This document shows positions 2 to 51,053 of a stretch of 64,000 bases of DNA, in pieces. Each line of letters begins with the position of its first letter. Positions within the stretch are counted from its first letter, which is position 1. Where the stretch lies: assembly GCA_944332295.1 (NCBI GenBank), contig CALVJR010000004.1, positions 4,157 through 68,156 on the forward strand, in the 5' to 3' direction. The notes below the pieces were generated by a model. That model searched no databases. It saw nothing but the letters and a program-made list of their open reading frames with translations, and was not told where the DNA came from. This DNA is from an uncultured Bacilli bacterium. Lineage in GTDB: Bacteria; Bacillota_I; Bacilli_A; RF39; UBA660. The position numbers and the translations under genes are program-made.

Positions 2-334
2 AAGATTCCTAGAGTCAAACCCAATGGAGAACCATATTATTATTGTGAGGGTTCTATGCCTTTTCCAGATAATTTGGATGCTCCTGCTAGAACTATGCTT
101 ACTAGTGAAAGTGGTGTTAGTAGAACAACTCACGTAATCGAGGATTTTAAAACAAAAAATCTTCGTTTATTAACTCCAAGAGAATGTGAACGAATTAATG
201 GCTTTCCAGATGATTGGACAAATACAGGTATGAGTGATAAGAAAAGATATTTTATGATGGGAAATGCCCTTGTAGTTGGCGTTATTGAGAGAATTGGAAT
301 AGAAATAGAGAATATTGTTGACAACGAAAATTAA
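2..334 (+). CDS. DNA (cytosine-5)-methyltransferase, C-terminal part (5' end lies upstream of the window)
   Basis: The frame is open from base 2. RLLTPRECERINGFPDDWT and GNALVVGV resemble the conserved C-terminal motifs of C5-MTases. Confidence 0.8.
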   Translation, partial: KIPRVKPNGEPYYYCEGSMPFPDNLDAPARTMLTSESGVSRTTHVIEDFKTKNLRLLTPRECERINGFPDDWTNTGMSDKKRYFMMGNALVVGVIERIGIEIENIVDNEN

Positions 335-380
335 TCTATAATGTATATTTTTGCAATCTATTAATAAAAGAGGTGTCCTT

Positions 381-1265
381 ATGAAATGGATTAAGAATTT
401 AGATATAGATAACACTCAAAAGCATATTATTAAATTGAGCTTTGTATCTTTATTAGTGATAATTGCGGGTATTTTTATTATTAATTTTTTATTTCAACAG
501 CACTGGGGCATTAAATTACTTGAAGCCGAATGGAGTGCTGGAGATGCTTTATCCTTTTTTGGGACTATTTTGACCATTGTAGGAACAGTAATCTCTACTT
601 GTATTGGTGTTAAAATGACAATCAAGGAAGAACGAAAAAAAGATTTAGAAAATGAAAAAAATTATAATAAACGAAATAATTCTTCTTACCTTTTGCTATC
701 TGATTCTATTTTAAAATTAGCTATAGATAAAAAAACTAGTATTTCTAATCTTGGAGAGGATAGAATTATTTTGACTAGTAAAAATTATGATTCTAATTCA
801 TCCTATTTTTTTGAATTAGAAACTTATTTTGATATTTTAAACAATGTTTATCCCATCAAAGCTCTAGTGGAAGAGTTAAGCTTAGACTATCATTGTGATA
901 ACACTCTTAATAAAAACATATTCGTTAAACATATTAAATTCACTAATTCATCTTGTGAACATAAATCTTTAACTATTGTTGATAATAAAAAAGTAGCTTT
1001 ATCTCTTTCATGCCTTTTAAGTTACTCAGAATTACAACAATTGCAGAATCATCTTGCCAATGATAAAAAAATTCAGATTATATTTACTGTTAGTTTTTTG
1101 AATTCTTTTGATGTAACCACAAAATGTCAATATAGAGCGGTTCTAACTTTAGATAATTCTTCTAAACAAGGAGTCTCAGAAATCAAAGGTTCTAACGCTT
1201 TAATATTCCAATATAAGGTAGAACATAGATTTTGTGATTTAATTAATATTGATACTTTATCATAA
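381..1265 (+). CDS. hypothetical membrane protein (two N-terminal TM helices)
   Basis: The ORF track starts at 351, but ATG 381 follows the RBS AGAGGTG. Hydrophobic stretches LVIIAGIFIINFLF and FFGTILTIVGTVISTCIGV are present. No recognisable domain. Confidence 0.55.
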   Translation: MKWIKNLDIDNTQKHIIKLSFVSLLVIIAGIFIINFLFQQHWGIKLLEAEWSAGDALSFFGTILTIVGTVISTCIGVKMTIKEERKKDLENEKNYNKRNNSSYLLLSDSILKLAIDKKTSISNLGEDRIILTSKNYDSNSSYFFELETYFDILNNVYPIKALVEELSLDYHCDNTLNKNIFVKHIKFTNSSCEHKSLTIVDNKKVALSLSCLLSYSELQQLQNHLANDKKIQIIFTVSFLNSFDVTTKCQYRAVLTLDNSSKQGVSEIKGSNALIFQYKVEHRFCDLINIDTLS

Positions 1266-1267
1266 TC

Positions 1268-1310
1268 AAAGAATCGCTTTCCCCACACCCCTGCGATTCT
1301 TTTGTTTTGA
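1268..1310 (+). terminator. rho-independent terminator
   Basis: Stem AAAGAATCGC / GCGATTCTTT followed by a T-rich run, directly after the stop at 1265. Confidence 0.6.
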
Positions 1311-4011: not shown

Positions 4012-7000
4012 ATTCATTATTAAATTTTAGTAATTCTCTTATGTCGTCCACAGATAAATTTTGGAAGCTTTGATATTCATCACCATCATTTTCAATTAAT
4101 TTATCACTCAGTATTTTTTTCTTTTCTTGTAAATCTAATATTTTTTCTTCTATTGTTCCTTTTGTAATTAATTTAATTACTTCTACAGTGTTTTTTTGTC
4201 CAATTCTATGTGCTCTATCAGTAGCTTGATTTTCTGCTTGTGGATTCCACCATAAGTCTAGATGAATTACGATATCTGCACTTGTAAGATTTAATCCTGT
4301 TCCGCCACTTTTTAACATAATTAAGAACACATTGGTATCATCCATGTTAAACTTATCTACTAATTCTTGGCGCTTTTTGCTACTAACAGAACCATCTATT
4401 ACATAGCTTGTTATGCCTTCTATATCTAGCTCATTTTTAACAATATTTAATGCTGTCTTAAAACTTGTAAACAATAATATTTTATGTCCATTACTTATTG
4501 CTTCACTAACTACATCTATTAAGTGATTTATTTTTGATGAAGTTTTTGTAAAATTATCAAATATAATTTTGGGATCAATGCATACTTGTCTAAGTCTGGT
4601 TAAAAGTGTTAAAATCTGCATTTTATTTTTGGTAAATCCTGCTTTTATTAGTTCTTCCATTTCTTTTTTTGTCTGTTCAACTAATGCAGCATATATTTTC
4701 TTTTCTTCCTCACTCAAATCTATATAAATATTATTTTCAATTTTATCTGGTAAATCTTTTAATACTTCATTTTTCTTTCGTCTTAAAATAAATGGAGCCA
4801 CCTGATTTCTTAATTTACTAAGAACTAAATTTGTAATATCATCAAACTCTTCTCCGATTTTATACTTTTCCTTAAATTTTGATTTATTAGAAAGAAATCC
4901 TGGCATAATATAGTCGAATATGCTCCATAATTCTAAAATAGAGTTTTCAATTGGTGTTCCTGTTAGGGCAAGTTTTACTTCGCTATTAATACTTTTTACT
5001 GCTTTTGTTAACATGGCTGTTGGATTTTTTATATTTTGTGCTTCATCTATAATCATAACTTTAAAATTCATTTCTTTATAGATATCTAAATCTTCTCTTA
5101 ATAGCCCGTAACTTGTGATATATACATTGCCCTCATACCCAGATAATTGTTTATGACGTTCTTTCTTTAATCCCGTAAATATTCTTCTTTTAATATTATC
5201 ACTAAATTTTTTAAATTCGTTATCCCAATTATACACTAGTGCTGTTGGTGTTACTATTAATATTTTAGCTTTCTCGTCTTTTACTTCTTCTAATACCTTT
5301 TTAACAAATATAATTGTTTGTAGACTTTTACCAAGGCCCATTTCATCAGCTAGTATTCCTCCAAGATTACATTTATAAAGATTATATAGCCATTTTACTC
5401 CTTCTTTTTGATAAGGTCTTAATAATTTTTCTTCTTCTTTAGAGAAAACTACTGGAGCATTTTTATACTCCTTAAAATTCTTAATAAATGAATCAAATAA
5501 AGTATTAGTTCTAATGAATCTATTTTTATTTCTTAAACTGTCTAGATAAAGTGCTCTGAATTTAGGAATTTCACCACTATTTTCTTCTAGCTCTAAATCT
5601 TCTTTTAACTCTTCTAATTCTTTTACCGATGGATCAAGTAAGTCTAAGATATCTCCACTTTTTAATCTGTAATATTTTTTCTTACTCTTTAGGCTTAGAA
5701 AAATATCTTCTAACTCATCAGTATTAACATTATCTAATTTAAATTCATAATTTATGATATTATCTTTTCCTATACTAAAACTAGTAGTACCTTGAATTTT
5801 TCGAATTAGATTCGTATTTTTTAATTTTTCACTAGTCAACACTTCATATTCTTTGGCAAGTTCTTCTAATCCATTTTCCATGAAATCAACTATTTCATCT
5901 ATATCATAAAGCATTAGATTCTCATCAAAACCATATTTTTGGATTTCTAGAAAAACACTTCTTTCTAACTGTCTATCTCTTACTAGTTGTTTATCATCTT
6001 TATCAAAATAATTAATTTCTATATCTTCATAATTAAAAATAATTTTACACTCTATATATTCTTCCAATATATCAAAATATAGTTTTACATTAGGCGTTTT
6101 TACAATCACTAAGTCATCTACAGTATCATCTAATATTACTTTATCTTTAATGCTGGGAATTAGATAATCTTTAAATTCTGAGAAGCTATCAGAAGAAAAT
6201 GTCAAACTATTTAAATTTTCGTCTAAAATCTTACTAGCAATAATTTTTTCCACTTCATTTAATTGATAAATTCCTTTATTATCTATTAAATAACTATAAT
6301 CATCAGACAGTGACTGTAATGTTGTTAAATCATAGTCTATATTTAATATGTGGATATCATCCTCTTTTGTTATCTTATAATTAAATGGTAGGCCCTTGAT
6401 GACGGATAGTTCCTTATTTATATAAGGTGATTCTACATATATACTATCAACAATTGAAAATAAGCTATCTAATTTATTTTTGTTTAATGTTATAGAAGAG
6501 TCATATCGATAGGATTTATAATAGCACATTTCTATAAAGTTCAATAGTTTTTTAGAAGTTTCATTGAAATAATAATCTTGATTATTGTAGATAAAATCTT
6601 TTCCAAATTTTACTGAACGATTATTATGGTAACTTTCAATAAAGCTATTTACTTTATTTCCTAATACATAAAGTTTTTTATCTCCTACCTTGAATCTTAA
6701 ATCATATTCTTCTGTTTCTTCATAATCATAATAGTTCATATATTTTTCTAGTTTTAAATAAGGAACTATTTTAGCTTCTTTTTTTATGATGTTTTTCTTT
6801 AAAGATGCTTGTTTTATTTCATTTAAAAATTCTATTACTTTTCTTTGGCTTTGCTCTTTTTTATCGATTAGAAAAAGATCATTTTGAAATTTAATTAAAA
6901 CTGCTGCAACGTGTTTACAAGAATCTGTTAATAAGAATTGAGGACATGTGCAACTTGTATTTATTATTTCATCTTCTTCATCTATATCAATTCTTACTAC

Positions 7001-37239: not shown

Positions 37240-37272
37240 AAAAAGATTGCTTCTTAGGAAGCAATTTTTTTA
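37240..37272. terminator. bidirectional terminator
   Basis: ATTGCTTC-TTAG-GAAGCAAT flanked by A-run and T-run. Confidence 0.6.
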
Positions 37273-38202
37273 TGGAAGAATTAACTCTTGACCAATAGAT
37301 AGTAGATTGGATGTTAAATTATTTAATAATTTTATCTCTTCTACACTGGTATTATTATCTTTAGCTATTGACCATAGACTGTCACCTTTTTGAACTATGT
37401 ATGTTTTCTTTAATTCTTTTTTAGGAATTTTTAATTTGTCACCAATTTGTAGATTTACGGTTTCTAAATTGTTAATTTCAATTAAATCATCTACTGGTAC
37501 ATCGTATTTTTGAGAAATTAACCATAGACTATCCCCTTTTACTACCGTATAAATTTCATATTCCTCATCTTCTGGTATATCTAATTTTGGTACTTTTAAT
37601 TGTTGTCCAATATACAAATTATTACTTGTTATATTATTTAGTCTTTTTAATTCGTCTACTGTTATATCATATTTTCTGGCAATACCGTATAATGTATCTC
37701 CTTTTTGGACTGTATAAGTTTCATAAGTTGGTGTGATTGCTGTTACAGGGATAAATAATACTTGCCCTATCTGAAGTAAGTCTGAAGTTAAATTATTTAA
37801 TCTTTTTAATTCTGTAACCGTTGTATTAAACTCGCTTGCAATTTTTGATAAGGTATCTCCTTTTACTACAGTATATATATTATTTTCTGTACTCATACCT
37901 GGTGGAATATAAGTATAGCCTCCATAATCAGCGATTGCTTTTACTACACCTTCTACATAATCAATTAAATTATTTTGTAGCTTTTGTTGGTCTGCAGCAT
38001 TATCAATAAAACCATATTCTACTAAAAGTGATTGCATTGGTGTTGTTTCTCTAATAATATAGTAATAATCTTTACTAGGATCTTCTGGTAACCTTCTTTG
38101 ATAAATTTTTCTCATCTTTTGACCTGCATCACCAATATTTTCTAGTGCCATACTAGCTAATGTATCATCATTGCGAAGCGCATAGACAATTTCAGCACCT
38201 TC
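37270..38202 (-). pseudogene. 3' fragment of a split N-acetylmuramoyl-L-alanine amidase gene (end of the Amidase_3 domain plus four LysM repeats)
   Basis: The frame is open upstream of the ATG at 38151 and reads EGAEIVYALRNDDTLAS. It continues with LLVEYGFIDN and four LysM repeats of the form Y-T/I-V-x-KGD-T/S-L...IGQ. There is no own start or RBS at the true N-terminus. Confidence 0.85.
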
Positions 38203-38216
38203 TCCTCCTGGTGATA

Positions 38217-38227
38217 GTCATTGTGTA
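38217..38227. repeat. sub-terminal inverted repeat arm (left)
   Basis: GTCATTGTGTA is the exact reverse complement of 49250..49260. Confidence 0.7.
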
Positions 38228-38236
38228 GTTAATTTA

Positions 38237-38914
38237 TTATTCTTCGATTTCTTCTAATATACCCTCTATCAAATATTCATATAATACATCACTAACTTTT
38301 TGTGTACGTAATCCTGTATCTATATCCAATTGTTCCGTTGCAACACTCCCTGTTCCATTCCAATAAGCTTTTGCAATTCTATCTATAGAATTCTTATCAA
38401 AAGTAGAAATATCACAATTCCACATTCTTGTTACGATTTCCATATTACATTTAGCTATTTTTATACAGGAATCCAACACGCTATTAGTTTTCTTCAACCT
38501 AAATTTTTTTACTTTTTTTAAATTCCACCCATACCATTTACTAGCTTTTTTACAACTATCGTAATCTCCAAAAGCATAAACACACGAAAATCTTGATGGA
38601 TAATTTTTATAATCACTCACCCTTATATATTCTAATATATATTCCGTATTATATCCATTAACAACAGTCATACTATGAGATGATGGACTACTAAAAGTTG
38701 TTTTATTAGGAATAAATGGAGCATAAACGATATTCCCACAGATAAAATCTTCTATTTTATCTGGTTCTGCTGTAAGGTTTCTAAAACCACTGGATACAAT
38801 GGTTTTATTTAATTTGTAGTTATGAAAATTAATCTGACTATATGAATTTTTTCCTTGTCCAATAAAAATATAAAATACTTTGGGAGCTTCTTCATTAATA
38901 TTTAATAAATTCAT
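38237..38914 (-). CDS. hypothetical protein (225 aa), last gene of the element
   Basis: Clean ORF. No domain recognised. Confidence 0.5.
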   Translation of the reverse strand: MNLLNINEEAPKVFYIFIGQGKNSYSQINFHNYKLNKTIVSSGFRNLTAEPDKIEDFICGNIVYAPFIPNKTTFSSPSSHSMTVVNGYNTEYILEYIRVSDYKNYPSRFSCVYAFGDYDSCKKASKWYGWNLKKVKKFRLKKTNSVLDSCIKIAKCNMEIVTRMWNCDISTFDKNSIDRIAKAYWNGTGSVATEQLDIDTGLRTQKVSDVLYEYLIEGILEEIEE

Positions 38915-39096
38915 ACCTTTATATCACCTTTTTACTTCATTTCAATTTTTTTATCAAATTCTCATATTATTCTTTGCTTTTCCTTATTCATGTATTCTTT
39001 ATCAATTATTCTTGCAAACTTCTTAAAAAGCCATATTTCTTTTTTAGTATAGTAATTATTTACAATAGTTCTAGTTTCTGCTCTCAATGATGATCC

Positions 39097-40023
39097 CTAC
39101 AATAATTCTAAATATTTCTTCAACATTTCAACTTCTAACTTAGTAACTAGCTTAACAAAATCAGTATAATTACCAGTTGTATGTGCTTTATCTAAAGCTT
39201 CATAATATTTTAATCTTGATTCTTTTTTTATAATTACAGGATTATATCCACTATTCATTAAGTCTAAATTCATAAGTAATCTTGAAGTTCTTCCATTGCC
39301 ATCTATAAATGGATGTATTTTAACTAACTCACCATGTAATAGCGCTGCTTGAATTATCGGATGATATTCATTCCAAGTATTATAAGTTAATATTAATTTT
39401 TCCATTAATTCGGGAACTTTTAAATAATCTGGTGGAATATGTGTTGCGCCTTTAATAGTTACATTTTCTTTTCTATATCTTCCAGCATTTTCGTTATCAA
39501 TATCTTTTAAAATTAACTGATGAATATTTTTAATATTCCATTCACTAATTGGTTCATTATCTTTTACTAGATCATCCAAAAATAAAATTGCTTTTTCATG
39601 ATTAATCGCTTCTAAATGCTCTTTAATAGATTTTCCACCAACAGTTATTCCTTCTAAAACAACCTGTGTTTCTCGTAATGTTAAAGTATTACCTTCAATT
39701 CCATTACTATTATAAGTCCATTCTAAATTAATAGATTCTCTTAAAGATTTTAAAGTTTCTTTAGGCATTGGTCTTTTACTATCTAATTTTCTTTTTAAGC
39801 TATCTACTTCATCAAAATAATTATCGTCTAAATCAATAATAAATTTATTATCATCTGGTTTAATTATTCTTTTATCAACAGGTTTATCAGCATCAATTGG
39901 AATATTCCAACTATTACCTACTTTAACAGCACCTTCAATTCTTCCATCTTGTAATAATTGTCTTATTCTTCTTTCACTAATATTCCATTTTTCAACAGCT
40001 TCTTTTGTAGTCATAAATTCCAT
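39097..40023 (-). CDS. Fic-family protein with N-terminal HTH
   Basis: Fic motif HPFIDGNGRTSRLL, inhibitory-helix-like SNGIEGN ([S/T]xxxE[G/N]), and an N-terminal MerR/excisionase-like HTH TTKEAVEKWNISERRIRQLL. ATG 40023 follows GAGGTG. Confidence 0.85.
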   Translation of the reverse strand: MEFMTTKEAVEKWNISERRIRQLLQDGRIEGAVKVGNSWNIPIDADKPVDKRIIKPDDNKFIIDLDDNYFDEVDSLKRKLDSKRPMPKETLKSLRESINLEWTYNSNGIEGNTLTLRETQVVLEGITVGGKSIKEHLEAINHEKAILFLDDLVKDNEPISEWNIKNIHQLILKDIDNENAGRYRKENVTIKGATHIPPDYLKVPELMEKLILTYNTWNEYHPIIQAALLHGELVKIHPFIDGNGRTSRLLMNLDLMNSGYNPVIIKKESRLKYYEALDKAHTTGNYTDFVKLVTKLEVEMLKKYLELL

Positions 40024-40042
40024 ACTTTTCACCTCGATTACA

Positions 40043-40071
40043 ATTATACCGGAATCGGTAGTATTTGTCAA
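40043..40071 (-). promoter_or_regulatory. consensus sigmaA promoter of the fic gene with an embedded palindrome
   Basis: On the minus strand: TTGACA, 17 nt, TATAAT. The spacer contains the palindrome TACCGATTCCGGTA (40047..40060). A related CCGATAACGG sits just upstream (40082..40091). Confidence 0.6.
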
Positions 40072-40266
40072 TATTTTTATTCCGTTATCGGTATATTAAC
40101 TTATGAATTAGCGACAAGTTGTCGGGAATTTTTAACTTCTCGCCAAGTTGGCACGAAGTAATGTTGATAAGTCTTTTAACTTCTCGACAACCTGTCGCGA
40201 AGTTAAATTTGTGATACATACGGGTTTTAGTATTATGTACTATTCTGTGCATATTGCACAGAATTT

Positions 40267-41841
40267 TTAAATCATGAATCTATAGAAAATTTCAATATTT
40301 TTATCTTTATCAATTTCAATTTTATCAATTAATGTTTGTAAAAGTTCTCTAGTAGGTTTCTTTATATCAATTAATTCTCTTATTTTCTTTTCATATTCTT
40401 CTAATTCTTTTGCTTTAATACTTTCTTTTTTAGTGCTTTTATATTTTTCTAAATCTATCTGAGCTTTATTTAAAAGTCGTTCTGTTTCTTGAGATAATCT
40501 TTTATAAGTAACATCTGATATATTACCTCTAAATTTATCTTCATATAACATATCTATTTTTGATATATATTCTTTTATCTTGTTTTCTAAGTATCTTATC
40601 TTTTCTTTATTATCTTCCTTTCTACTATTTTTATCTGCTATTTCCTTTGATAAGACCCTAGAATCGATTTGTTTAATATAATTTTTACAAGTTGTTCTTA
40701 CTACATCAAGCAATGCTTCTTCTAATTTATCATAAGGCATAAAATGTGGTTCACATAATCTTCTTCTTGGATCTCTTGCATATTTATTACAATTAATAGT
40801 CCAATAATTATGATTCTTTCGGTAAGTAATAGTTAGTGCATTTCCACATTCTTTGCAAAATAGTAAATTTTCAAATAATCTTTTTTCTCTATGACTAACG
40901 CTTACATTAGTTCTTTTTACATTACCTTGTATTCTTTCAAAAGTTAATTTATCAACCAATGGTTCGTGTGTACCAGGAACTATGTCCCAATTGCTTTTTG
41001 GAAGAGCTTTTTTCTTTTTAGATTTATAATTTACTTTAGTCTGTGTACTTTGAACCATATCACCTGTATACATTCTGTTTTTTAGTATCTTCTTAACTGA
41101 TGATATAGTCCATTGTTCATTATATCTCATTTTAGAATTAGGATTTTTACGTTTTAAACTGCTAGGTGTTTTAATTTTATTGTCATTTAAATATGAAGTT
41201 ATATCAGATAATCCTACACCATTAGCAGCCATTTCAAATATTTTTTTAACTACTGGTGCATATTCTGGGTCAGGTATTAAATGTCCTTTTTCTTCTGGGT
41301 CTTTCATATATCCATAACTAGGATTACTTCCAATAAACTTTCCTTTCTTTCTTTTATCATTTAAAACACTTCTAATTTTAATAGAATTTTGCCTACTATA
41401 ATAATCATTACATGCAATAATGAATGTTGATGAATCATTACTTGCTTGATTAATTGCACTATCATAGTTTTCTTGCAACGATATAAATCTTATATTATTT
41501 TCTGGAAAAAAGTTTTCAATATAATATCCTGTCATAACATGATCTCTACCTAATCTTGATAAATCTTTTACTATAACTAAATTTACCATTTTATTTTTAA
41601 TATCTTCAATCATTTTAGTAAATCCAGGTCTTTCAAAATTAGTACCGGAATATCCATCATCAACATATTCTCCAACAAATATAAAACCTTTTTCTTTTAC
41701 GAAGTTCATTAATAAATTTCTTTGATTAGTAATACTTTCACTTTCTGATTCATAAGATTTTCCTTCGTCTGCTTCCGATAATCTTATATATATGACCGCT
41801 CTATAAATATTATTTGGCATTTGCATTAATCCGTTATACAT
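40267..41841 (-). CDS. large serine recombinase (TnpX/TndX-like)
   Basis: N-terminal resolvase domain (AVIYIRLSEAD, VKDLSRLGRD), a recombinase domain, a zinc ribbon CKECGN...C, and a C-terminal coiled coil. AAGGAG RBS. Confidence 0.9.
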   Translation of the reverse strand: MYNGLMQMPNNIYRAVIYIRLSEADEGKSYESESESITNQRNLLMNFVKEKGFIFVGEYVDDGYSGTNFERPGFTKMIEDIKNKMVNLVIVKDLSRLGRDHVMTGYYIENFFPENNIRFISLQENYDSAINQASNDSSTFIIACNDYYSRQNSIKIRSVLNDKRKKGKFIGSNPSYGYMKDPEEKGHLIPDPEYAPVVKKIFEMAANGVGLSDITSYLNDNKIKTPSSLKRKNPNSKMRYNEQWTISSVKKILKNRMYTGDMVQSTQTKVNYKSKKKKALPKSNWDIVPGTHEPLVDKLTFERIQGNVKRTNVSVSHREKRLFENLLFCKECGNALTITYRKNHNYWTINCNKYARDPRRRLCEPHFMPYDKLEEALLDVVRTTCKNYIKQIDSRVLSKEIADKNSRKEDNKEKIRYLENKIKEYISKIDMLYEDKFRGNISDVTYKRLSQETERLLNKAQIDLEKYKSTKKESIKAKELEEYEKKIRELIDIKKPTRELLQTLIDKIEIDKDKNIEIFYRFMI

Positions 41842-42062
41842 TTACTACTCCTTTCTTTTTTGCATAACAATCAAAGCCATTTAAAGTATAATACTTTATT
41901 TTCAAACTGACGAATGTGCTAATTTTTAATTAGTACACTTTTTATATATTTATTTAACAAATCTACCAAATTAAGAGCATTATCATCTTTTCTAAAAGTT
42001 TCCGTAATTTTAAACATAAGCCACCTCATAAAATTTTATGAGTGTCTTTTTCATTTTATTTC

Positions 42063-42578
42063 TTATTCCTCCTCGTATATATCACTTAATAATTTTTTTA
42101 ACTCTTCTTGTTCTTCAAGAGTTGCTTCATTTTTAGGTATTAATTTACCATGCCAGTATTCATTACCAACTTCATCTTTATAATAAATACTATCTTCTTT
42201 TTTATTTAATTTATTATTATATTGTTTAAATTTTTGTTTATAGTCTGTATTAAAATTATTTTTAATACTTTTTAATTTTAAATTTAAGACCTCTGATAAT
42301 TTAATTATACGCTTTGAATTATTTTTACTTGTATTATCATATTTAGTCTTAATATAACCAAAGGTGGCTAAATTACTTATACTTTTTGATACAGTTACTG
42401 ACGTTACATCATAAATATCACAAAAATATCTATTAGTAGCCCAACAATAACCATTCTTCTTACAAAGACTTATTATATGAATTAATAATAATCTTTCTAA
42501 AAAAGTTAATCTATTATCTCTTAATACAGATTTTAAAATAAATACATTTATGAATTCTTCTTTATCCATAATAATCAA
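42063..42578 (-). CDS. winged-helix DNA-binding protein (phage/plasmid replication- or regulator-like)
   Basis: LLLIHIISLCKKNGYCWATNRYFCDIYDVTSVTVSKSISNL resembles wHTH domains of mobile-element regulators. Confidence 0.45.
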   Translation of the reverse strand: MIIMDKEEFINVFILKSVLRDNRLTFLERLLLIHIISLCKKNGYCWATNRYFCDIYDVTSVTVSKSISNLATFGYIKTKYDNTSKNNSKRIIKLSEVLNLKLKSIKNNFNTDYKQKFKQYNNKLNKKEDSIYYKDEVGNEYWHGKLIPKNEATLEEQEELKKLLSDIYEEE

Positions 42579-42713
42579 TATATAAGATATATCTTAAGAT
42601 AATAAGAGTGCACTTTTAAATGTTATTTTCCCTAGGTATTTTCATCTTATAACAAATTAAAATAAAAAGAAATTGTACAAAATATGCAAAAGGAGTACAT
42701 TTCTGTACTCCCA

Positions 42714-43169
42714 CTACAATGATTCTATATCTTTAAACTCATAATTTATGTTTTCTTTTAACAATCTTTTTAATATAGACATCAATTGCATAATTATGTA
42801 ATTAATTTCATCAAAAGATACCTTAATATCAATAACATCTTTATTCGGATGTAACAATTGATTTCTCAATCCATCATCACTGTAATATTTATTTAAAATT
42901 TGAATAGTTTGTTCTGGCAAAACTTCTGTTTTATTATTTTGAATTATTGAAAGTAAAGTCTTCATTATACCTTGTTCATAATGTTCAACATCTGCATCGG
43001 GCACTAATTTGTATATCTCCAAAACCATTCTTTCAATTAAAGGAAAGCTATAATACAAACTCTCAATAGTTCCAGAATTTAAAAAGTCTGTATCTATTTC
43101 ACCAATTATATTTTTAGTATTATCATCTTCCAATGCTTTTACAAAATCTAAATATGTAAATCTAACCAT
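42714..43169 (-). CDS. HEPN-like protein (151 aa) with Rx4H motif
   Basis: GLRNQLLH (R102..H107, nt 42866..42849, verified codon by codon). All-helical-looking. Overlaps the upstream gene by 22 nt. Confidence 0.5.
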   Translation of the reverse strand: MVRFTYLDFVKALEDDNTKNIIGEIDTDFLNSGTIESLYYSFPLIERMVLEIYKLVPDADVEHYEQGIMKTLLSIIQNNKTEVLPEQTIQILNKYYSDDGLRNQLLHPNKDVIDIKVSFDEINYIIMQLMSILKRLLKENINYEFKDIESL

Positions 43170-43654
43170 TCTATCACTTCCTTTATAGTTTTCAAATCCA
43201 ACTTTGTTAATTGGTTATCAAATATTAATTTACTATTCCCTATTTCTTTATTATATTTAAAATTATAATATTTTGAGAAATCTAATCTTTCATCACTTTT
43301 ACTTTTAATCTTATTAATCAAATATTTAAATCCTTGAAAATTAATATTATTATTTTCAGACAAATTATACATCATTCTATAAATATCATGATCATAATTC
43401 TCTATTTCTTCTAAAGATAAATATGTTTCCAAAATTAATTTTGTTTTAAAAAACATTTCGATGTAAAAAAACAAATTAAAGAATGTTAATGGTTTAATTA
43501 TTAAATTATTTGTACAACAATTTAAAATGGACAATGAATTATCTTTTAAATATATATAATTATCTATTATTTCTTGTCTTAGCTGTCTAGTTTTTTCTGA
43601 AATAGTATCGGAAATATCCGGTAAATACTCTAATTCAAATGCTTTATTTTTCAT
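43148..43654 (-). CDS. hypothetical protein (168 aa), possible classical HEPN fold
   Basis: EMFFKTKLILE...YDHDIYRMMYNL and YYNFKY resemble the E..lKa.l...tHdL..L / Y...RY layout of classical HEPN domains. This is a weak, by-eye match. Confidence 0.4.
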   Translation of the reverse strand: MKNKAFELEYLPDISDTISEKTRQLRQEIIDNYIYLKDNSLSILNCCTNNLIIKPLTFFNLFFYIEMFFKTKLILETYLSLEEIENYDHDIYRMMYNLSENNNINFQGFKYLINKIKSKSDERLDFSKYYNFKYNKEIGNSKLIFDNQLTKLDLKTIKEVIEWLDLHI

Positions 43655-45404
43655 TCAATAACCAACTTATAAAAATTAGCCCTGAAAAGGTCACTACTAA
43701 TGATGTTACTAATTGTTCATTAATTAGCGTCCCATGCATAATATTATTTCTTAAATTTAAACCAGATTTCTCGTACAAAATATAATTTAAATACATTATT
43801 CCATCAACTTTCGACTCATCATCTTTATAAATTTCAAATAAATTATTTAAATTTGTAAAACCATCTTTACAAACTGCAAGATTATTTCTTTCCAAAATTT
43901 TTATAACATTAACTTCTATTGATAATATATTACTAACAACTATAGCATATTCGTTATTAAAATCATAACCAATTGATTCTTTTAATTCCTTAATTATGCT
44001 TTTAAAATCTGATTTAGATATTGTTGAAATCAAAATATTTTGATGCAATTGAAATGTTGTAGATAAATATTTTAGTAATTCTTCATAAAAGTTTGAACTT
44101 AATTTATTTAATAATTTTGGATGAGTTTCAGTATATTCAATACCTTTTTCATCAAAATATTTTTTAAAGTTATCATCATTAACTTTTTTTCTATCTTCCA
44201 AACGTAATGAATAAACTTCTCTCTTTGAATCTATAGTATATTTAGAAACCAAACTCAGCATAGGATGTTCTGCATATGATTCTAAAGCCTGATATAATTC
44301 TGATGTAAAATTTATTTTTGAGGCTGCATATAGCTTAAATTTGTTATCTAATAAGCTTTTTCTATATTCTTCTACTTCTTTTGTTGGAACTTTATGTTCA
44401 TATTTATATTCATGCATTTCAGACTTCACATAGTCATTATCAGAAACAATATATCTCTTTAGACTTAATAAATGCGATAAACATTCTTGAATTTTTCCCT
44501 TTTGATTATCCTGGTAACTTTCTATATTTTTTGAAAGATACAATAATTCTTTTTTCAAATTTTCAATTTCTGATAACCCTTGTATAAAACTATAATCTTT
44601 ATTTTTAAGTTTATTTACTAATTTATTAGTTACATTAATATACATATTAATTATTTTGTTATTTGAATCTAAATCTAAACAATTATCTTTATCTAATTCA
44701 AATATTACTTCTTTTGCATAATTATATCCACCAAAAGTATCTAAAGAATCCTTTATATATTCCATATATACATCTATATGTTTTGTCTTTTCAACATCAT
44801 AATATATTATATTAGATATATGCTTTTTGCTTGTAATAAACAATTCTATCAGCTCATTATAGTCTTTTTTCATAGATTTTAAATTATTAAATATTTTACT
44901 TATAATTTCTCCATCTATAAAAATATCATTATCTAAACCAAAATAAATAATTTCTTTATAAAACAAATACAAATCGTTAGGTGTTTCAATGAATAATTTT
45001 TTTCTAACATTTAAACTATCCACGACATTTCTAAAATCATCTTTTGCCAATTTATAATCATTACAATTTGTTTTGTACTCATTTGAATTAATTGTATTAT
45101 TATATGTATACAAAAAATCTTGAATAATATTTTTATAATATAATAAATCGTTATTATCAGCATAAAGATACAAATAAAATATAATTTCTAAATCTTGTTT
45201 TGATATTCTTATTTCATGACTATTAAAAATAGTAAATAATCTATTATCGTGATAATAAAAAGAATTATATATTCTTAAAAACTTTCTAAACTCCAACAAA
45301 AACATTTCTCTACTACTTTGATTATTAAAAGTATAATCAAAATTCTCATTTAATTGATTACCAGAAAGTTTATCTTCTAGAAATTCCTTTAATATTTTTT
45401 TCAA
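43644..45404 (-). CDS. large hypothetical protein (586 aa) with C-terminal Rx4H HEPN-like motif (DUF4209-like)
   Basis: GLNLRNNIMHGT (R552..H557, nt 43751..43734, verified) followed by a hydrophobic tail. TTG start with AGGAGG six nt upstream. Confidence 0.5.
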   Translation of the reverse strand: MKKILKEFLEDKLSGNQLNENFDYTFNNQSSREMFLLEFRKFLRIYNSFYYHDNRLFTIFNSHEIRISKQDLEIIFYLYLYADNNDLLYYKNIIQDFLYTYNNTINSNEYKTNCNDYKLAKDDFRNVVDSLNVRKKLFIETPNDLYLFYKEIIYFGLDNDIFIDGEIISKIFNNLKSMKKDYNELIELFITSKKHISNIIYYDVEKTKHIDVYMEYIKDSLDTFGGYNYAKEVIFELDKDNCLDLDSNNKIINMYINVTNKLVNKLKNKDYSFIQGLSEIENLKKELLYLSKNIESYQDNQKGKIQECLSHLLSLKRYIVSDNDYVKSEMHEYKYEHKVPTKEVEEYRKSLLDNKFKLYAASKINFTSELYQALESYAEHPMLSLVSKYTIDSKREVYSLRLEDRKKVNDDNFKKYFDEKGIEYTETHPKLLNKLSSNFYEELLKYLSTTFQLHQNILISTISKSDFKSIIKELKESIGYDFNNEYAIVVSNILSIEVNVIKILERNNLAVCKDGFTNLNNLFEIYKDDESKVDGIMYLNYILYEKSGLNLRNNIMHGTLINEQLVTSLVVTFSGLIFISWLLNEK

Positions 45405-45477
45405 TTTTTACCTCCTACTACTAAAAAAAGCGTAATACAAACCCAAAATAATTTAAGCCTGTACTAGCGCCTTTTTA

Positions 45478-46662
45478 TTATCTATTTCCTTTAATACGGT
45501 TATGCGTTCTACATAACATTTGACAATTAATTATATCAGTAGAACCACCCTTACTCCATGCTGTAACGTGGTCAGCATCCATATCTTTATAATCCCATAT
45601 TTTGACTTTATTTGATAAATTTTCAATTACACACATAGGGCAATTAGAAACTGCTTTCAATTTTGCTTCTTGCGTCTGTCTTTCATAAACTGTTTTTTTT
45701 GTCGGCTCATCAAAGATTCTAATATTAAGTAATTTAGTATCTTCTTTTCTACAACCATTTAATATATATTCGTAGCATCCTTTTTTATCGGTAACAAAAT
45801 AATCACTATATAATTCATTTAATTTTTTTGAAATTTCATTTGAATTATAGGGATTCTTATGATATTTTTCGTACATTTTCCCCCAATTTATATATTGCAT
45901 TTCATCTTTTACATCAATGAATATAGTAGAAACCCAATTGATAACATCATTAAAATATGAAGTTAGTTCATTTATATTATCATCATGTCTGTGATTTGCC
46001 ATATATTTTTCAAGATTACCATCTTTTTCCCAATCCTTTGAAACCCAAGATAAAGCAACTTCTAACAAACCTTGTCTTTTTACTTCTACTTTCATATAAC
46101 TCAACCACTTATGTAAATTTGAGTTCTGAGAATTGCTAAATATTTCTTTTGCTTTAGTTATAAAAGTTCCACTATATATAGAATTTAATAGTTCTTGATT
46201 ATTTAGTGGCTTTCCGGCGATATTGATTGTTTTAAACCACTCCTTTATTTCTGATTCATCACCACTACAAATATAAATAGTCAATTCAGTATTATATATT
46301 TTTTCTTGCTTATCTTTAGGCAACGATTCAAATTTATATGGAATATCATTTTCATCTATCCATGCGAATTTATTTGTTATATATCTACCTATGCTAGTTA
46401 TTCTTTGCTGTCCATCAAGAATTTCATATTTATCTCTTTCTGTTTCAACAAAATATATTAGCCCTATCGGATATCCTTTTAATAAAGAATCAATAACAGC
46501 AACGTCATCTTTTCCGTTTGCATAAATATAATTTCTTTGATATTCTGGCTGAATAGTTAATTTCCCAGCCCAACCAAACAACCCTTTTTCTTCTGATTCA
46601 CTATATTGAAATCCTTCGCAAATTTGTCTAATAGTTAAATCTGTTCTTAATCTAGTTTTCAT
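45478..46662 (-). CDS. DUF262 (ParB/Srx-like) domain protein with C-terminal HNH nuclease (GmrSD-like)
   Basis: [13 protein letters not shown]262 signature. C-terminal Cys pairs plus [12 protein letters not shown]...[18 protein letters not shown] motif. Confidence 0.75.
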
Positions 46663-47773
46663 CTACATCCTCTACTTTCTGAATTAATATTCTATCATAT
46701 ATTTGTTTACCATTAATATATCCTCTATGACGTTGAGATGGAATGATCCTTATTCTTTCAACTTCTGGTGTATTATCCCCAGAATGTGTGTGTCCTATTA
46801 TTCTAAATTGTTTAGGATTATGAAACTTAAGAAAAGTTATTGGAACCCCCATAACACCAACATAATCAGATGGAATCGCATCATATCTTGGGACTTCTAA
46901 TGCATCATAATTATCAAATTTTGGATAAGTATTTATTCCGTAATCTTTTTCTAACTTTTTTATTAATGGCTTGTTATATCTTAAATTATCTTGCATCGTC
47001 ATCAAACTTAGCGTTGTATGACGTCTTTTTAAATCAATATTAGTATACCAACATATATTTCCCATACTACGCCATTTTTGTCCCTTTTCATCTATCCAAA
47101 ATCTTGTTTCTCTAGGTTCCGAATCTTCGGGAACTTTAAATGCCATATCGCCAGCATATTTTCCTAACCACATCTTACCATCTCTTACAAGAGGAAATGT
47201 TTCTTTAGTAGTCGCATCATTTTCATTACCAATTATAATAAATTGCTTATTTGATTCTATTAACCAAGCTAGAAATTCTCTAAATAATGAAAACGGTGGA
47301 TTTGTTATTATAATATCTGCCTCATCCCTCAAAGTTTTGACTTCATCAGATCTAAAATCACCATCACCTTCAAGGTAATCCCATTCTAAATCATTAATAT
47401 CAATTCTTCCAGATTTATTTTTATCTCTATCTAATGTAAATATTTTACCATGTGAATTTGTTTTTGTTTTATCATATTTAGGACTTTCTTGCTCAAATAA
47501 TGATAATTGAACAAAAACTGATGTTTTTTTATCATTAGCATAACTCGTACTAATAAGTTTCTTTAATCCTAATAATTCAAAATTCTGTGCAAAATATCTT
47601 GTAAAATTACTCCATTCCGGATCATCGCACGGAAGTAATATTATTTTATCCTTGAAAACGTCTGGATTATATTCTAAATAAGCATTCATTTCTTTTTCTA
47701 TATCTGAGTATTCTGTGTAAAACTCGTCATCCTTCTCTTTTTTTGCTCTCTTTAAACTTTCGTTATTAGCCAT
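46652..47773 (-). CDS. N6-adenine DNA methyltransferase
   Basis: Catalytic IIITNPPFS (NPPF, motif IV) and an N-terminal DEFYTEY segment. Overlaps the downstream gene by 11 nt. Confidence 0.75.
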
Positions 47774-47777
47774 TCTA

Positions 47778-48434
47778 TCACTTCCTATTAACTAAAATTT
47801 TCTCTAATTTGTGTTCTAACTGATATAAAGTATTGGAACCGGATAAGTCTCCACCTAAGTCTTTGAGAGCCGAATATAATATTTGGCGTTTGGACGGATT
47901 TGAATTGTTTGGGACTTCTTTATCATTTTCTTTTTCGTAAATACCCAATGTTCCATCTTCTTTTGTTTTTGAATAATAATATTTACCGGTTAAACTAGAA
48001 TGAAACTGAATATTTTTAAAATGATGTCTATTTTTAGATAGTGATAATGCTTCTTTTTCTTCTTCTATTTCTTCTTTAGTTTCTTTCCACAAATGTAATC
48101 TATCAGTTGTACCATTAAATTCTGCCATACTTTCAAATGCAGAATATATTTCTTCTGGTTTAATATGATAAAATTCTCTTACTCTTATTTTATCACCTAT
48201 TTTTTCTTTACTTCTTAATTCTGGATTTAAAGTATCAATAAAGTTATGTAATTTTTTATCGGTTAATCTTTCCATAACATCAAATGTTGCATATATATGA
48301 AAGGAAAAAGGTACTGCTTCAGAATTATTTAACTGTTTAACTCTAGCATCGACATCATCTGCATAACCAATTTTTACATATTCTGGGAATGATGGATTGG
48401 TTAATATATAAATTACCCCACATTTTTGCTTCAT
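47778..48434 (-). CDS. T5orf172 / GIY-YIG-like domain protein
   Basis: GVIYILTN...VKIGYADDVDARVKQLN matches the T5orf172 (GIY-YIG superfamily) N-terminal pattern. AGGAG RBS. Confidence 0.65.
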   Translation of the reverse strand: MKQKCGVIYILTNPSFPEYVKIGYADDVDARVKQLNNSEAVPFSFHIYATFDVMERLTDKKLHNFIDTLNPELRSKEKIGDKIRVREFYHIKPEEIYSAFESMAEFNGTTDRLHLWKETKEEIEEEKEALSLSKNRHHFKNIQFHSSLTGKYYYSKTKEDGTLGIYEKENDKEVPNNSNPSKRQILYSALKDLGGDLSGSNTLYQLEHKLEKILVNRK

Positions 48435-48468
48435 GTTTTCACACTCCTAAAGATATAAATACATGTAT

Positions 48469-48477
48469 ATTATAGCA
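48469..48477 (-). promoter_or_regulatory. extended -10 promoter element for the cargo operon
   Basis: The minus strand reads TGCTATAAT about 35 nt upstream of the ATG at 48434. The -35 is weak. Confidence 0.4.
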
Positions 48478-48838
48478 TATAATTTGACATTTTTGGATTT
48501 TGTCATTAAATTACATACCATTTTTCAATTTTTGCTATATAATTATTTCAAAATTACGGTTTGAGATATTCCCCATAATTTTGCAAATGGCGGGAGTAAA
48601 TTTGCAGTGCTGGCTAAGACAAGATTTTACTAACCTGAAAGAGTCACCAATTTTTTTAAATTATTTAAAATCAATTTTTATCAAAAAAAGACTCTATTTA
48701 ATTTTTTTAAATAGAATCTTACATTTTAAATTTGTTTTTTCAATTTTAGTGGACTAATTTTTAAAATAATTAAGTTATATTTTATTTTTAAAAATTCTTC
48801 AAATTATTCATCTTTTATATCTTTTTTACCACTTATCA

Positions 48839-49195
48839 TCATGATTCTCCATAAATTAGTTCTTTCAAAACTATTTCTTCAGCTATATTTTTTATGTTAT
48901 TCATCTTACCTACCCATAAAATTTGATTATTTTGTTTCAACCTTTCATCAACATTTTCTTTTTCAGCAAGTAATAATATTAAATTATTTATTCTACTATT
49001 AGCAATAATATCGACATCATGTAGATATTCATTTAACTTATCATTCATAAGTAATTCAGTATATAATCCTCTTTTATTCTTCTTTAGATACTCTAATTTA
49101 AGCAATCCATACTTTCCTATATTAAATCTTTCTTTATCTTCTAATTTCAAATTTGGTAATAAATAATCACCTTTTCTAGTGTAACTAATATTCAT
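48839..49195 (-). CDS. tnpV: TnpV-like transposon protein
   Basis: N-terminal ISYTRKGDYLLPNLKL and GKYG..L.YLK resemble TnpV of Tn4451-family elements, from memory of that family. Confidence 0.6.
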   Translation of the reverse strand: MNISYTRKGDYLLPNLKLEDKERFNIGKYGLLKLEYLKKNKRGLYTELLMNDKLNEYLHDVDIIANSRINNLILLLAEKENVDERLKQNNQILWVGKMNNIKNIAEEIVLKELIYGES

Positions 49196-49249
49196 AACAT
49201 TTCTCCATTTCTTTCTATTTTTATTCAGCTTTAATTGTTATACATTCGT

Positions 49250-49260
49250 TACACAATGAC
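49250..49260. repeat. sub-terminal inverted repeat arm (right)
   Basis: TACACAATGAC is the exact reverse complement of 38217..38227. Confidence 0.7.
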
Positions 49261-49261
49261 C

Positions 49262-49549
49262 ATCCCCACCTCCGGAATTGATATGATTCGATATTAAAAT
49301 AGCATCGGGATCTCCATTAAACGCTTCGTTTGCTCTTCTTAATCTTTCTGTTCTAGAAATATCTTCATCTGTTGTTTTTACTGATACTACAGGAATACCT
49401 AACTCTTGTAATCTTCTTGTCATATAATTTGCTGCTTGTAAGTTAAAATCTTTCTCTTTTAAATTTCCACTGATTGCTCCAGGGTCACTTCCTCCATGAC
49501 CAGAATCTACTACAACACCCGTTATTTTCCTTTCGTTCATCTTTTTCAC
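49262..49549 (-). pseudogene. 5' fragment of the split N-acetylmuramoyl-L-alanine amidase gene (first ~95 aa of Amidase_3)
   Basis: VVVDSGHGGSDPGA...EKDFNLQ...ILISNHINSGGG, then the frame runs into element DNA (DGHCVTNV, stop at 49238). No signal peptide. Confidence 0.85.
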
Positions 49550-49613
49550 CTCTACATTAAAATATGTAAATGAGATGATTTTGCTACTATTAGAAAAATC
49601 TTAAAATAGATTT

Positions 49614-51053
49614 TTACCTCTTAACATATGCTTTTATTTGTCTTTTTGCTTTGGTTGTTTTTACTTTGTCTAACCATTCAATGTTAGGTCCTAAAGATAG
49701 GGTATCAGTAATAATTCTTACTCTATCTTTATTATGTAGAATATAATCACAATCTACAGGGTTATCGTTTACTATGGCTGCAACCATTTTATTTCCTATA
49801 TCAGTATGAATTTTATAAGCCAGGTCAATAGCAGTTGATCCTAATGGTAATTCCATTATCTCTCCTTTATTTGTATATACATATACTCTTTGTGATAATA
49901 ATTCTTGTTGTATACGTTTTACAAATTCTTGATTGTCTGTACAATTTTGGTCTATTTCTACTAAGGATTCAAAAAACTGATACTTATTTTTTAAATCTTC
50001 TTGCATTATATTTCTAGCATTACCTTTGTTTATATTCCAAAAAGCTGTTAATCCATATGATGCGATTTTTTCTTTTTCAAAAGTTCTTATCTGAATTTGA
50101 ACTAGTCTACCATCTGCTCCAAATACTGTAGTATGAAGAGAGCTATACAGATTAGTTTTGGGATTTGCTATGTAGTCTTTAAATCTATTATTCATAGGAA
50201 AATATTTATCATGAACTAGTCCTAAAGTTGGATAGCATTTAGCAACATTATCAACAAGGATTTTTAATGCTAATAAATCATGAATATCCGATAATTTTTG
50301 TCCTTGCTCTAGACGTTTATATATTCCATAGATATTTTTTGTTCTTATTTTTAGCTCATGTGGAATATTGGCATTAGTTAATACTTTATTTATTGTTTGT
50401 AACATTTCTTCGCGACATTGTTTGGTATCTTCATCTATTTTCATTCTTATGTCACGTACTCTTTGATAAGCATCTGAATTATAATACTTTAAAGATAAAT
50501 CTTCTAATTCACTTTTTATTATATGCATTCCTAGTCTGTCCGCTAAAGGGACATATAACAATAATGTTTCTTTGGCATTTTCTTTTTGCTTAAATTCTGA
50601 TTTAAATTGTAATGTTCTCATATTGTGTAGTCTATCAGCAAGCTTTATTATAATAATTCTTACATCATTTGTTATACTAGTAATAATTTTTCTAGTATTT
50701 GCTAGATTTTGTTCTTGTTTGCTTGCGAAATTCATTCTACTAATCTTAGTTACTCCATCTACTAAGTTTGCAACATCATCATTAAAATCTATAGCAATTT
50801 GCTCTTTGGTAATTTCGGTATCTTCTAGCGTATCATGTAATAGTGCCGCACAAAGGGTGTCCGTATCTGCATACATTTCAGCTAGAGTATACGCTACATT
50901 TAATGGATGAGTAATATAATCTTCTCCGCTTTGACGTTTTTGACCTTTATGTAATTCTTCTGCATAGTAATATGCTTTTTTTATCATTTCTAGTCCTTCT
51001 ATGTTGTATTCTGCTACTTTTAAAAGTAAATCATTTACAGTTAAATTATTCAT
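49614..51053 (-). CDS. rel: RelA/SpoT-homologue (p)ppGpp synthetase/hydrolase, short form (HD + synthetase + TGS only)
   Basis: HD motif HDTLEDT, synthetase motif DYIANPKTNLYSSLHTTV, TGS domain near the C-terminus, and no ACT/RRM region. ATG 51053 follows AGGAGG. Confidence 0.85.
   Translation of the reverse strand: MNNLTVNDLLLKVAEYNIEGLEMIKKAYYYAEELHKGQKRQSGEDYITHPLNVAYTLAEMYADTDTLCAALLHDTLEDTEITKEQIAIDFNDDVANLVDGVTKISRMNFASKQEQNLANTRKIITSITNDVRIIIIKLADRLHNMRTLQFKSEFKQKENAKETLLLYVPLADRLGMHIIKSELEDLSLKYYNSDAYQRVRDIRMKIDEDTKQCREEMLQTINKVLTNANIPHELKIRTKNIYGIYKRLEQGQKLSDIHDLLALKILVDNVAKCYPTLGLVHDKYFPMNNRFKDYIANPKTNLYSSLHTTVFGADGRLVQIQIRTFEKEKIASYGLTAFWNINKGNARNIMQEDLKNKYQFFESLVEIDQNCTDNQEFVKRIQQELLSQRVYVYTNKGEIMELPLGSTAIDLAYKIHTDIGNKMVAAIVNDNPVDCDYILHNKDRVRIITDTLSLGPNIEWLDKVKTTKAKRQIKAYVKR

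Follow-up and report, generated by a model that had tools for sequence, protein, structure and literature searches.

A predicted Type II-like restriction-modification pair with a DUF262-HNH nuclease, next to a T5orf172 gene, on a mobile element of an uncultured Bacilli bacterium

Introduction

The 64,000-nucleotide (nt) stretch of contig CALVJR010000004.1 analysed here (positions 4,157 to 68,156; the window) comes from an uncultured Bacilli bacterium and carries three tightly packed genes that encode a T5orf172 protein, an adenine DNA methyltransferase and a nuclease joining a DUF262 domain to an HNH domain. The locus raises two questions: whether the three genes form one new defence system, and whether a nuclease with the scaffold of the GmrSD-family Type IV enzymes attacks DNA that carries the methyl mark or DNA that lacks it. 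Coordinates below are positions in the window, in which the three open reading frames (ORFs) are read on the minus strand. The T5orf172 gene (47778..48434; 218 amino acids (aa); PF10544, GIY-YIG superfamily) is the first of the transcription unit. It is followed by M (46652..47773; 373 aa), which encodes a stand-alone N6-adenine DNA methyltransferase of the EcoRI_methylase family (PF13651), and by R (45478..46662; 394 aa), which encodes the DUF262-HNH nuclease (PF03235 and PF01844). Comparison with diverse loci reveals that the functional unit is the M-R pair, which behaves as a self-contained, horizontally mobile restriction-modification (RM) cassette, and not the trio.

Results

Conservation of the methylase-nuclease pair

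The nuclease belongs to a large family, with 5,344 clusters (50% identity) at E<=1e-3 and 388 at <=1e-30, most of which share the same 370-420-aa architecture. Gene neighbourhoods were compared in 160 diverse loci from two distant clades, namely 80 genome loci (set 1) and 80 metagenomic loci (set 2). The nucleases of set 1 are 53-66% identical to that of the window and come from Clostridia, Bacteroidota, candidate phyla radiation lineages, Chloroflexota, Proteobacteria and one archaeal metagenome-assembled genome (MAG); the six-frame ORFs of these loci were scanned with the window's proteins. Set 2 was seeded with the most distant representatives, to which the window nuclease is ~32-35% identical. 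Of the 73 set-1 loci with enough upstream DNA, 71 have an EcoRI-type methylase gene upstream of the nuclease and on its strand; in set 2 all 76 loci with upstream DNA have one upstream, which gives 147/149 over both sets. Each of the 147 pairs is co-oriented, and in 125 the two genes abut. The spacing between M stop and R start in the 71 set-1 pairs is mostly -4 nt (18 loci) or +1 to +7 nt. The M and R scores co-vary across pairs (Spearman 0.77, p = 4e-27). The constancy of the methylase implies that the nuclease attacks unmodified rather than modified DNA, and comparative genomics thus favours one of the alternatives raised in a preliminary description of the locus, that of a methylation-protected, Type II-like nuclease. 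The DUF262-HNH protein is accordingly no plain stand-alone enzyme of the GmrSD type but the all but obligate partner of the methylase encoded next to it.

No third gene recurs with the pair. When all neighbouring ORFs were clustered, the largest cluster covered 6/147 loci (e.g. L160 229..585) and consists of a small Cro/C1-type HTH_3 (helix-turn-helix, HTH) protein encoded upstream of M on the same strand. Controller proteins of Type II systems are classically encoded at this place, and the HTH_3 gene probably encodes the controller (C) protein of the M-R family; the window copy is without it. Beyond M and T5orf172, the other neighbour genes of the window are found in none of the set-1 loci.

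The pair also travels by itself. Plasmids of 9-10 kb from Pediococcus, Apilactobacillus and Moraxella carry it alone, adjoining the replication genes in Pediococcus CP146864 (9 kb), and it is present on E. faecium megaplasmids and actinobacterial plasmids. The Flavobacterium phage vB_FspS_laban6-1 (L090) carries a complete M+R pair (gp007-gp008) as a moron, with a nuclease 59% identical to that of the window; the pair is an oppositely oriented insert among structural genes, beside the tail tape-measure gene of this siphovirus.

Domains and predicted structure of the nuclease

The nuclease matches GmrSD_N/DUF262 (PF03235, 1e-20) and HNH (PF01844, 6e-7) in Pfam. DUF1524 gives no match at E<=0.01, and the C-terminus is a PF01844 zinc-finger HNH, so that the canonical C-terminal HNH reported earlier in place of DUF1524 is borne out. 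In the DUF262/ParB-fold domain, the YQRN motif is encoded at 46531..46542, the VIDS motif at 46486..46497 and the DGQQR motif (residues 83-87) at 46402..46416, all on the minus strand. The HNH motifs span residues 341-388 in the pattern CxxC...DH...N...CxxxC-H-N, with CPMC at 45631..45642, DADH at 45568..45579 and the last motif segment, at the C-terminus, at 45499..45528, again on the minus strand.

Both domains are strongly conserved. In 67 diverse aligned homologues Q42, R43, D83, G84, R87, E157, N160, C341 and H365 are invariant. Across divergent members Q42-R43, V56/S59, D83-G-Q-Q-R87 and E157/N160 of the DUF262 domain are invariant or nearly so, as are the catalytic residues and zinc ligands of the HNH domain (C341, D364-H365, N379, C384 and N388). 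The region of V56/S59 aligns to the RLFDS region of BrxU.

Structure was predicted with AlphaFold2 from an alignment, at a mean predicted local distance difference test score (pLDDT) of 82.7; a single-sequence prediction gave a pLDDT of 33. The alignment-based model is composed of an N-terminal alpha/beta part (~1-175), a helical middle (~183-336) and a small C-terminal beta-beta-alpha module. A Foldseek search of the PDB with this model returned, in order, BrxU (7p9k; Foldseek probability 0.92), the CTP-binding proteins ParB, Noc and KorB, SspE, the Gme HNH nickase and Cas9 HNH domains, with no Type II enzyme among the matches. A sequence search of the PDB with the nuclease found BrxU alone (E = 0.037). 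The scaffold of the nuclease is GmrSD-like, yet it is compact, carries a zinc-finger HNH and is genetically tied to a methylase.

Classification

The window nuclease fits the PADLOC model REase_II PDLC03418, labelled "Type II restriction enzyme", over 10-371/372 at 2.6e-80, and ten representatives of all clades fit the same model end to end, at 1e-73 to 1e-104. This full-length fit places the pair in an already catalogued Type II-like RM family, and the novelty that the preliminary description attached to the architecture was overstated. As in Type II systems, a separate nuclease is stably linked to a methylase, with no motor ATPase or helicase and no recurrent third gene. The nuclease shares with the GmrSD Type IV enzymes an N-terminal DUF262 with an invariant DGQQR. 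It was not filed among them, because it lacks the DUF1524 C-terminus and because, as far as genomic context goes, it does not stand alone without a cognate methylase. NCBIfam holds no model that matches, and full-text searches of the literature found no paper on the pairing of a DUF262-HNH nuclease with a methylase of the EcoRI family.

The methylase

The methyltransferase matches EcoRI_methylase (PF13651) over profile positions 2-344/345 at 2.3e-124 (415.6 bits, against a gathering cut-off of 26.4) and the PADLOC MTase_II model at 7e-100. Its NPPF catalytic motif, residues 158-161, is encoded at 47291..47302. It is therefore a stand-alone methyltransferase with a full-length family match and a catalytic motif, and without a specificity (S) subunit, as in Type II systems. 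EcoRI's own nuclease is a PD-(D/E)XK enzyme, so that the EcoRI-type methylase family is paired here with an unrelated nuclease fold. A sequence search of the PDB returned nothing for the methylase. Cluster look-ups, two large protein searches and plasmid and phage annotations gave only generic names, with no named close relative of either the methylase or the nuclease. GAATTC, the EcoRI prototype site, occurs 12 times in the window (20.9 expected), an avoidance that is not significant.

Gene organisation and expression signals

The preliminary description had reported three packed, co-oriented ORFs with a 4-nt gap and an 11-nt overlap, and both the arrangement and its domain calls (T5orf172, adenine methyltransferase, DUF262 plus HNH) agree with the sequence and with Pfam, as do the NPPF and DGQQR motifs, which are present where it had placed them. 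The T5orf172/M junction reads AAG TGA taga ATG, which gives the 4-nt gap, and the M stop and R start overlap by 11 nt at 46652..46662 on the minus strand (ATGAAAACTAG). The gene lengths of 218, 373 and 394 aa were called identically and independently on many public contigs. As read from the sequence, the M/R overlap indicates that translation of R is coupled to that of M, the first gene of the two.

Upstream of the T5orf172 ATG at 48434, positions 48444..48477 of the minus strand hold a putative extended -10 element, TGCTATAAT (48477..48469), and a putative AGGAG ribosome-binding site (48448..48444). The extended -10 promoter was part of the earlier account, and its motif, TGcTATAAT, is real as a match to the consensus only. 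No good -35 hexamer accompanies it, and the AT-rich region shows no enrichment of promoter-like hexamer pairs (53 found, 64.5 expected from shuffles). Since in DNA of 24-30% GC such matches are no commoner than in shuffles, a promoter before T5orf172 is plausible but unproven. No terminator-like site was found in 42000-49700, and a scan of 37-50 kb with Rfam, including the gap upstream of T5orf172, found no RNA family.

The 400-nt gap between the TnpV-family gene described below and T5orf172 (48435..48838) is without an ORF of at least 50 aa on the minus (operon) strand. It contains an 85-aa ORF on the plus strand (48500..48757) and a locally GC-richer stretch at about 48560-48650. An ORF of 99 or 76 aa occupies the same place in close relatives, and the gap may therefore be a decayed gene.

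The T5orf172 gene

The T5orf172 protein matches PF10544 at 3.2e-12 (47.3 bits, cut-off 20) and the PADLOC model PDC-S57 (PDLC05043) at 4.5e-56, the latter over positions 3-145 of 221 and confined to the N-terminal 145 aa. In 23 T5orf172 homologues, which are conserved over their full length, Y9, Y24, R31, H63 and E87 are invariant; the C-terminal 75 aa are conserved as well and have no family assignment. Our literature search found no paper on PDC-S57. ICP1 Odn/Gp88 shows that a T5orf172 domain can have sequence-directed nuclease activity (PMC8263062). CapR was considered as a precedent for a T5orf172 regulator and was rejected, since its counterpart in homing endonucleases with a T5orf172 domain is their DNA-binding domain and not the T5orf172 domain itself.

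The gene is rarely found with the pair. Only two of the 160 diverse M-R loci have it, one in each set (L039 4148..4849 and L126 637..1257); these proteins are 27-31% identical, belong to independent lineages and are encoded directly upstream of M. The plasmid and phage copies of the pair that were inspected are without T5orf172, and T5orf172 homologues 62-78% identical occur without the pair. Type III mod/res genes lie upstream of such a homologue in L091-093 and L097-099, and a Type IIG fusion enzyme is encoded 20 nt upstream of it in L094-096; the homologue of L100 shares an island with Endonuclea_NS_2 and CBASS genes. Relatives nearly identical to the window have the trio at identical positions, which follows from shared descent, one mobile element having been inherited as a block. 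The earlier view of the trio as a system is not supported on these counts. Elsewhere the three genes co-occur in near-identical copies of the element and, as the order T5orf172-M-R, in L039 and L126; the other 158/160 loci have no T5orf172.

We therefore treat the T5orf172 gene as a co-transcribed but independent defence-island gene encoding a putative GIY-YIG nuclease, rather than as an RM subunit. Genes of the T5orf172/PDC-S57-like type adjoin Type III systems, Type IIG systems and, in three independent lineages, the Type II-like pair, which suggests that the family has a loose, general affinity for RM loci, one that the tools and papers we found do not explain.

The carrier element and its cargo

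The preliminary description missed that the three genes are cargo of a serine-recombinase element of ~11 kb that splits an amidase gene. The element (38209..49258) is inserted in an Amidase_3-LysM gene, with an imperfect GGAGGnGnnGGT core at both junctions (~38197-38208 and ~49259-49271). Its large serine recombinase (40267..41841, minus strand, 524 aa) matches the Pfam families Resolvase, Recombinase, Zn_ribbon_recom and DUF4368. A TnpV-family gene (48839..49195, minus strand; Pfam TnpV 4.6e-39) marks the left end and has the same position in relatives, and the element also encodes an HTH_36 protein. The amidase N-terminus (49238..49549, profile 1-79) stops at ...HINSGGGDG at the left junction and the frame resumes at ...GGEGAEIVYALRNDD at the right junction, leading into the amidase C-terminus with four LysM repeats (37270..38151, profile 123-173). 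Joining the junctions (HINSGGGDG + AEIVYALRNDD) restores the amidase frame. Such restoration on precise excision recalls skin-like intervening elements. In the relatives L081 and L085 there are tandem insertions in amidase genes.

The breakpoints of public contigs from independent chicken-gut metagenomes fall exactly at the two junctions, at 38205-38207 and 49257-49272. In two sequencing runs the interior of the element is identical and the flanks differ by 5-8%, a pattern consistent with recent mobility. An empty-site contig was not observed among the public contigs. The region combines the recombinase, the split target gene, the core at both ends and the polymorphic insertion by which an integrative element is recognised. 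The host DNA is low in GC (about 28%), and contigs of the element occur in chicken-gut metagenomes.

In human-gut relatives, whose nuclease is 95% identical, the TnpV-T5orf172-M-R module is constant and two other slots vary in defence-type cargo. The slot downstream of R holds three overlapping ORFs on the minus strand in the window (43644..45404, 43148..43654 and 42714..43169; 586, 168 and 151 aa; 21% GC), of which the 586-aa ORF has a weak DUF4209 match. None of the three has a significant match in PADLOC or NCBIfam, and the slot (42714..45404) may hold an undescribed defence system. In relatives this slot is occupied by AAA_21/OLD-TOPRIM and Mrr_cat-nSTAND3 genes or by a gene for an 821-aa AAA_21 protein. 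The second variable slot, beyond the recombinase (38237..40071), contains a gene for a Fic/DOC protein with an HTH (39097..40071) and a DUF2441 gene (38237..38914) in the window, and AAA_14/DUF4143 and DUF4238 or Bro-N in relatives.

Discussion

Proposed mechanism

We consider it likely, from the sequence and gene context, that the methylase marks a short site with N6-methyladenine, that the coupled HNH nuclease cuts DNA without the mark, and that the T5orf172 protein acts separately. On this proposal the EcoRI-family methylase would place an N6 methyl group on an adenine within a short site of the host DNA, and the DUF262(ParB-fold)-HNH protein would cut DNA without that mark through an HNH active site formed by D364, H365, N379 and N388. 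The order M then R with an overlapping stop and start favours synthesis of the methylase with or ahead of the nuclease. Carried by the element, the cassette would restrict incoming phage and plasmid DNA or stabilise the element by post-segregational killing, and probably does both. Methylation protection, the HNH domain as the cutter and the two roles are plausible readings of the sequence; the restriction and addiction-module roles plausibly follow by analogy with established RM biology.

Several observations weigh against this proposal. The nearest solved structure, BrxU, is a modification-dependent Type IV enzyme, and classical Type II enzymes do not have the invariant ParB-like nucleoside triphosphate (NTP) pocket. 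The PADLOC and DefenseFinder papers do not reveal whether the REase_II seeds were experimentally characterised or are REBASE predictions, and public names for the proteins go no further than 'DUF262 domain-containing', 'HNH endonuclease' and 'McrA'. A Markov observed/expected analysis of all 4- and 6-mer palindromes in 820 kb pooled from 80 host loci, and in the window, gave only generic depletion (GATC, GGCC, CTAG) and no recognition site. In two of the 149 loci (L049, L054) an intact nuclease homologue has no EcoRI-type methylase nearby, and in L073 and L078 an apparently frameshifted methylase stands beside an intact nuclease; should these four cases be real and not MAG errors, loss of the methylase would not always make the nuclease lethal. 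The shared promoter, the 4-nt spacing and the recurrence in L039 and L126 make some interplay between T5orf172 and the pair possible.

Some of these loci deserve a further remark. On a Peribacteria chromosome (L028) the methylase, in three fragments, and the truncated nuclease have decayed together; L028, L073 and L078 may reflect MAG assembly errors or a nuclease tolerated without its methylase. In L054 a Fic gene (248..1294) lies 3 nt upstream of the solitary nuclease, in the place of the methylase. Palindrome counts in the interior of the element compared with its flanks were uninformative. GATC is rare across the window (71 observed, 192 expected, observed/expected 0.37), which hints at a GATC-specific restriction system in the host or its past; no link of this signal to the M-R pair was found.

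Alternative explanations

The alternative that survives best adds a nucleotide switch. In an SspE-like or NTP-gated enzyme the DUF262 domain would act as the switch, cleavage by the HNH domain would require binding or hydrolysis of an NTP, and the methyl mark would be protective or serve as a 'self' signal that tunes activity. In both cases the system would differ in mechanism from a classical Type II enzyme that needs only Mg. The ParB-fold motifs are invariant or nearly so across clades of ~31-60% identity, and the best structural matches of the nuclease are BrxU, the CTP-binding ParB, Noc and KorB, and SspE. BrxU and GmrSD are stimulated by NTPs and SspE is a DUF262-DUF1524 effector that works with a host modification (PMC12707154, PMC9646914, PMC13251355). 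In relatives, the DGQQR motif is required for nucleotide hydrolysis and defence (PMC4619093; bioRxiv 10.1101/2024.01.29.577857), and the DGQQR mutations Q79A/R80A of HEC-06 abolish defence (bioRxiv 10.1101/2024.01.29.577857). Conservation of the motifs is, however, no proof of NTP dependence, as the DUF262 domain could serve only DNA binding or dimerisation, and PADLOC places the nuclease family under Type II. We regard such gating as a tentative possibility. Equally tentative is the specific form in which the QR/DGQQR pocket would gate the HNH domain at unmethylated sites by NTP, possibly through ParB-like clamping or a dimer rearrangement as in BrxU or SspE.

A composite system, in which the T5orf172 protein would be a second effector nuclease or would control the M-R operon from the slot of the HTH C protein, appears improbable to us. 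The three genes do share a promoter region, with T5orf172 4 nt from M, and the trio is kept at identical positions in all close relatives; that conservation, however, reflects the shared descent of one element. Independent T5orf172 genes (27-31% identical) directly upstream of M in L039 and L126, the repeated adjacency of homologues to RM systems of other types, and the nuclease activity that T5orf172 domains can have in ICP1 Odn/Gp88 (PMC8263062) are set against the lack of the gene in 158/160 diverse M-R loci and in the plasmid and phage copies inspected, against its position downstream rather than upstream beside Type III and Type IIG systems, and against its modelling in PADLOC as a single-gene candidate.

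Least probable is an ordinary Type IV GmrSD-like nuclease whose methylase is an unrelated neighbour or protects against something else: DUF262, DGQQR, BrxU as the closest structure and the rare solitary homologues L049 and L054 speak for it, but one specific, co-diverging methylase family adjoins the nuclease in 147/149 loci from several phyla, from plasmids and from a phage, which is unexpected for a stand-alone Type IV enzyme, the nuclease has no DUF1524 and is ~200-300 aa shorter than BrxU (~580 aa) and SspE (~560 aa), and the dedicated REase_II profile fits it end to end.

Significance

With the methylation-protected pair as the preferred reading, the region reads as a mobile element that carries a Type II-like RM pair and, independently of it, a T5orf172 defence candidate, and not as a new three-gene system. 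The remaining interest lies in the design of the nuclease, which is widespread and combines a ParB-fold DUF262 with a zinc-finger HNH, a combination for which we found no paper and no solved Type II structure. Generic public names hide thousands of restriction nucleases with a dedicated methylase, and the family could yield new specificities of practical use. It also offers a natural comparison with the Type IV enzymes GmrSD and BrxU and with SspE, having the same ParB-fold and His-Me scaffold in a context that is probably methylation-protected. In a family of integrative elements from gut bacteria the cassette is a fixed module, with exchange of defence cargo in the slots next to it. If NTP gating were true, the nuclease would form a mechanistic class of its own, with Type II genetics and GmrSD/SspE enzymology, and the GmrSD scaffold would have been switched between modification-dependent and modification-blocked restriction.

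Comparison with known systems

In terms of the T5orf172 protein, PDC-S57 and ICP1 Odn/Gp88 share with it a T5orf172/GIY-YIG-like domain, whose catalytic-type residues are conserved in the window protein. The likeness to PDC-S57 covers the N-terminal 145 aa only, whereas the C-terminal 75 aa are without a family.

The orthodox Type II restriction enzymes with HNH nucleases include KpnI, PacI and Hpy99I. The M-R pair resembles such systems in having a separate N6-adenine methylase and nuclease in one operon, without a helicase, motor ATPase or specificity subunit, in its spread on plasmids, phages and integrative elements with an optional Cro/C1-type controller gene, and in a beta-beta-alpha-Me/HNH catalytic module; the PADLOC Type II models fit both proteins. 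It differs from them in the ParB/Srx-fold DUF262 domain of the nuclease with its invariant nucleotide-binding motifs, a domain that our PDB searches found in no solved Type II structure.

GmrSD, Eco94GmrSD and BrxU (7p9k) share with the nuclease an N-terminal DUF262 with QR and DGQQR, a helical linker and a C-terminal His-Me finger nuclease. BrxU is larger (580-587 aa, compared with 394 aa for the window nuclease), and the GmrSD-family Type IV enzymes have DUF1524 in place of the PF01844 zinc-finger HNH; a methylase, in contrast, accompanies the window family in 147/149 loci.

NsnA of Menshen and PD-T4-2_A have the same ParB-DUF262 core, with PADLOC matches to the window nuclease of 1e-30 for NsnA (residues 33-291) and 5e-20 for PD-T4-2_A. 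The systems to which they belong have several genes but no dedicated EcoRI-type methylase, and REase_II fits the window nuclease far better. The closest published remark that we found is in the Menshen paper, which asks, as an open question only, whether ParB-DUF262 domains with a methylase beside them "may target non-modified genomes" (PMC12065111).

SspE (6jiv) combines a DUF262-type NTPase domain with an HNH-like nuclease and is the restriction arm of a host-modification system (PMC12707154). The modification in its system is backbone phosphorothioation by SspABCD and not base methylation. Unlike the window nuclease, SspE carries DUF1524 and is much larger, and its structural match to the window nuclease is weak (Foldseek probability 0.15). 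It nevertheless provides the precedent for a DUF262 nuclease that works with, and not against, the self mark (PMC12707154).

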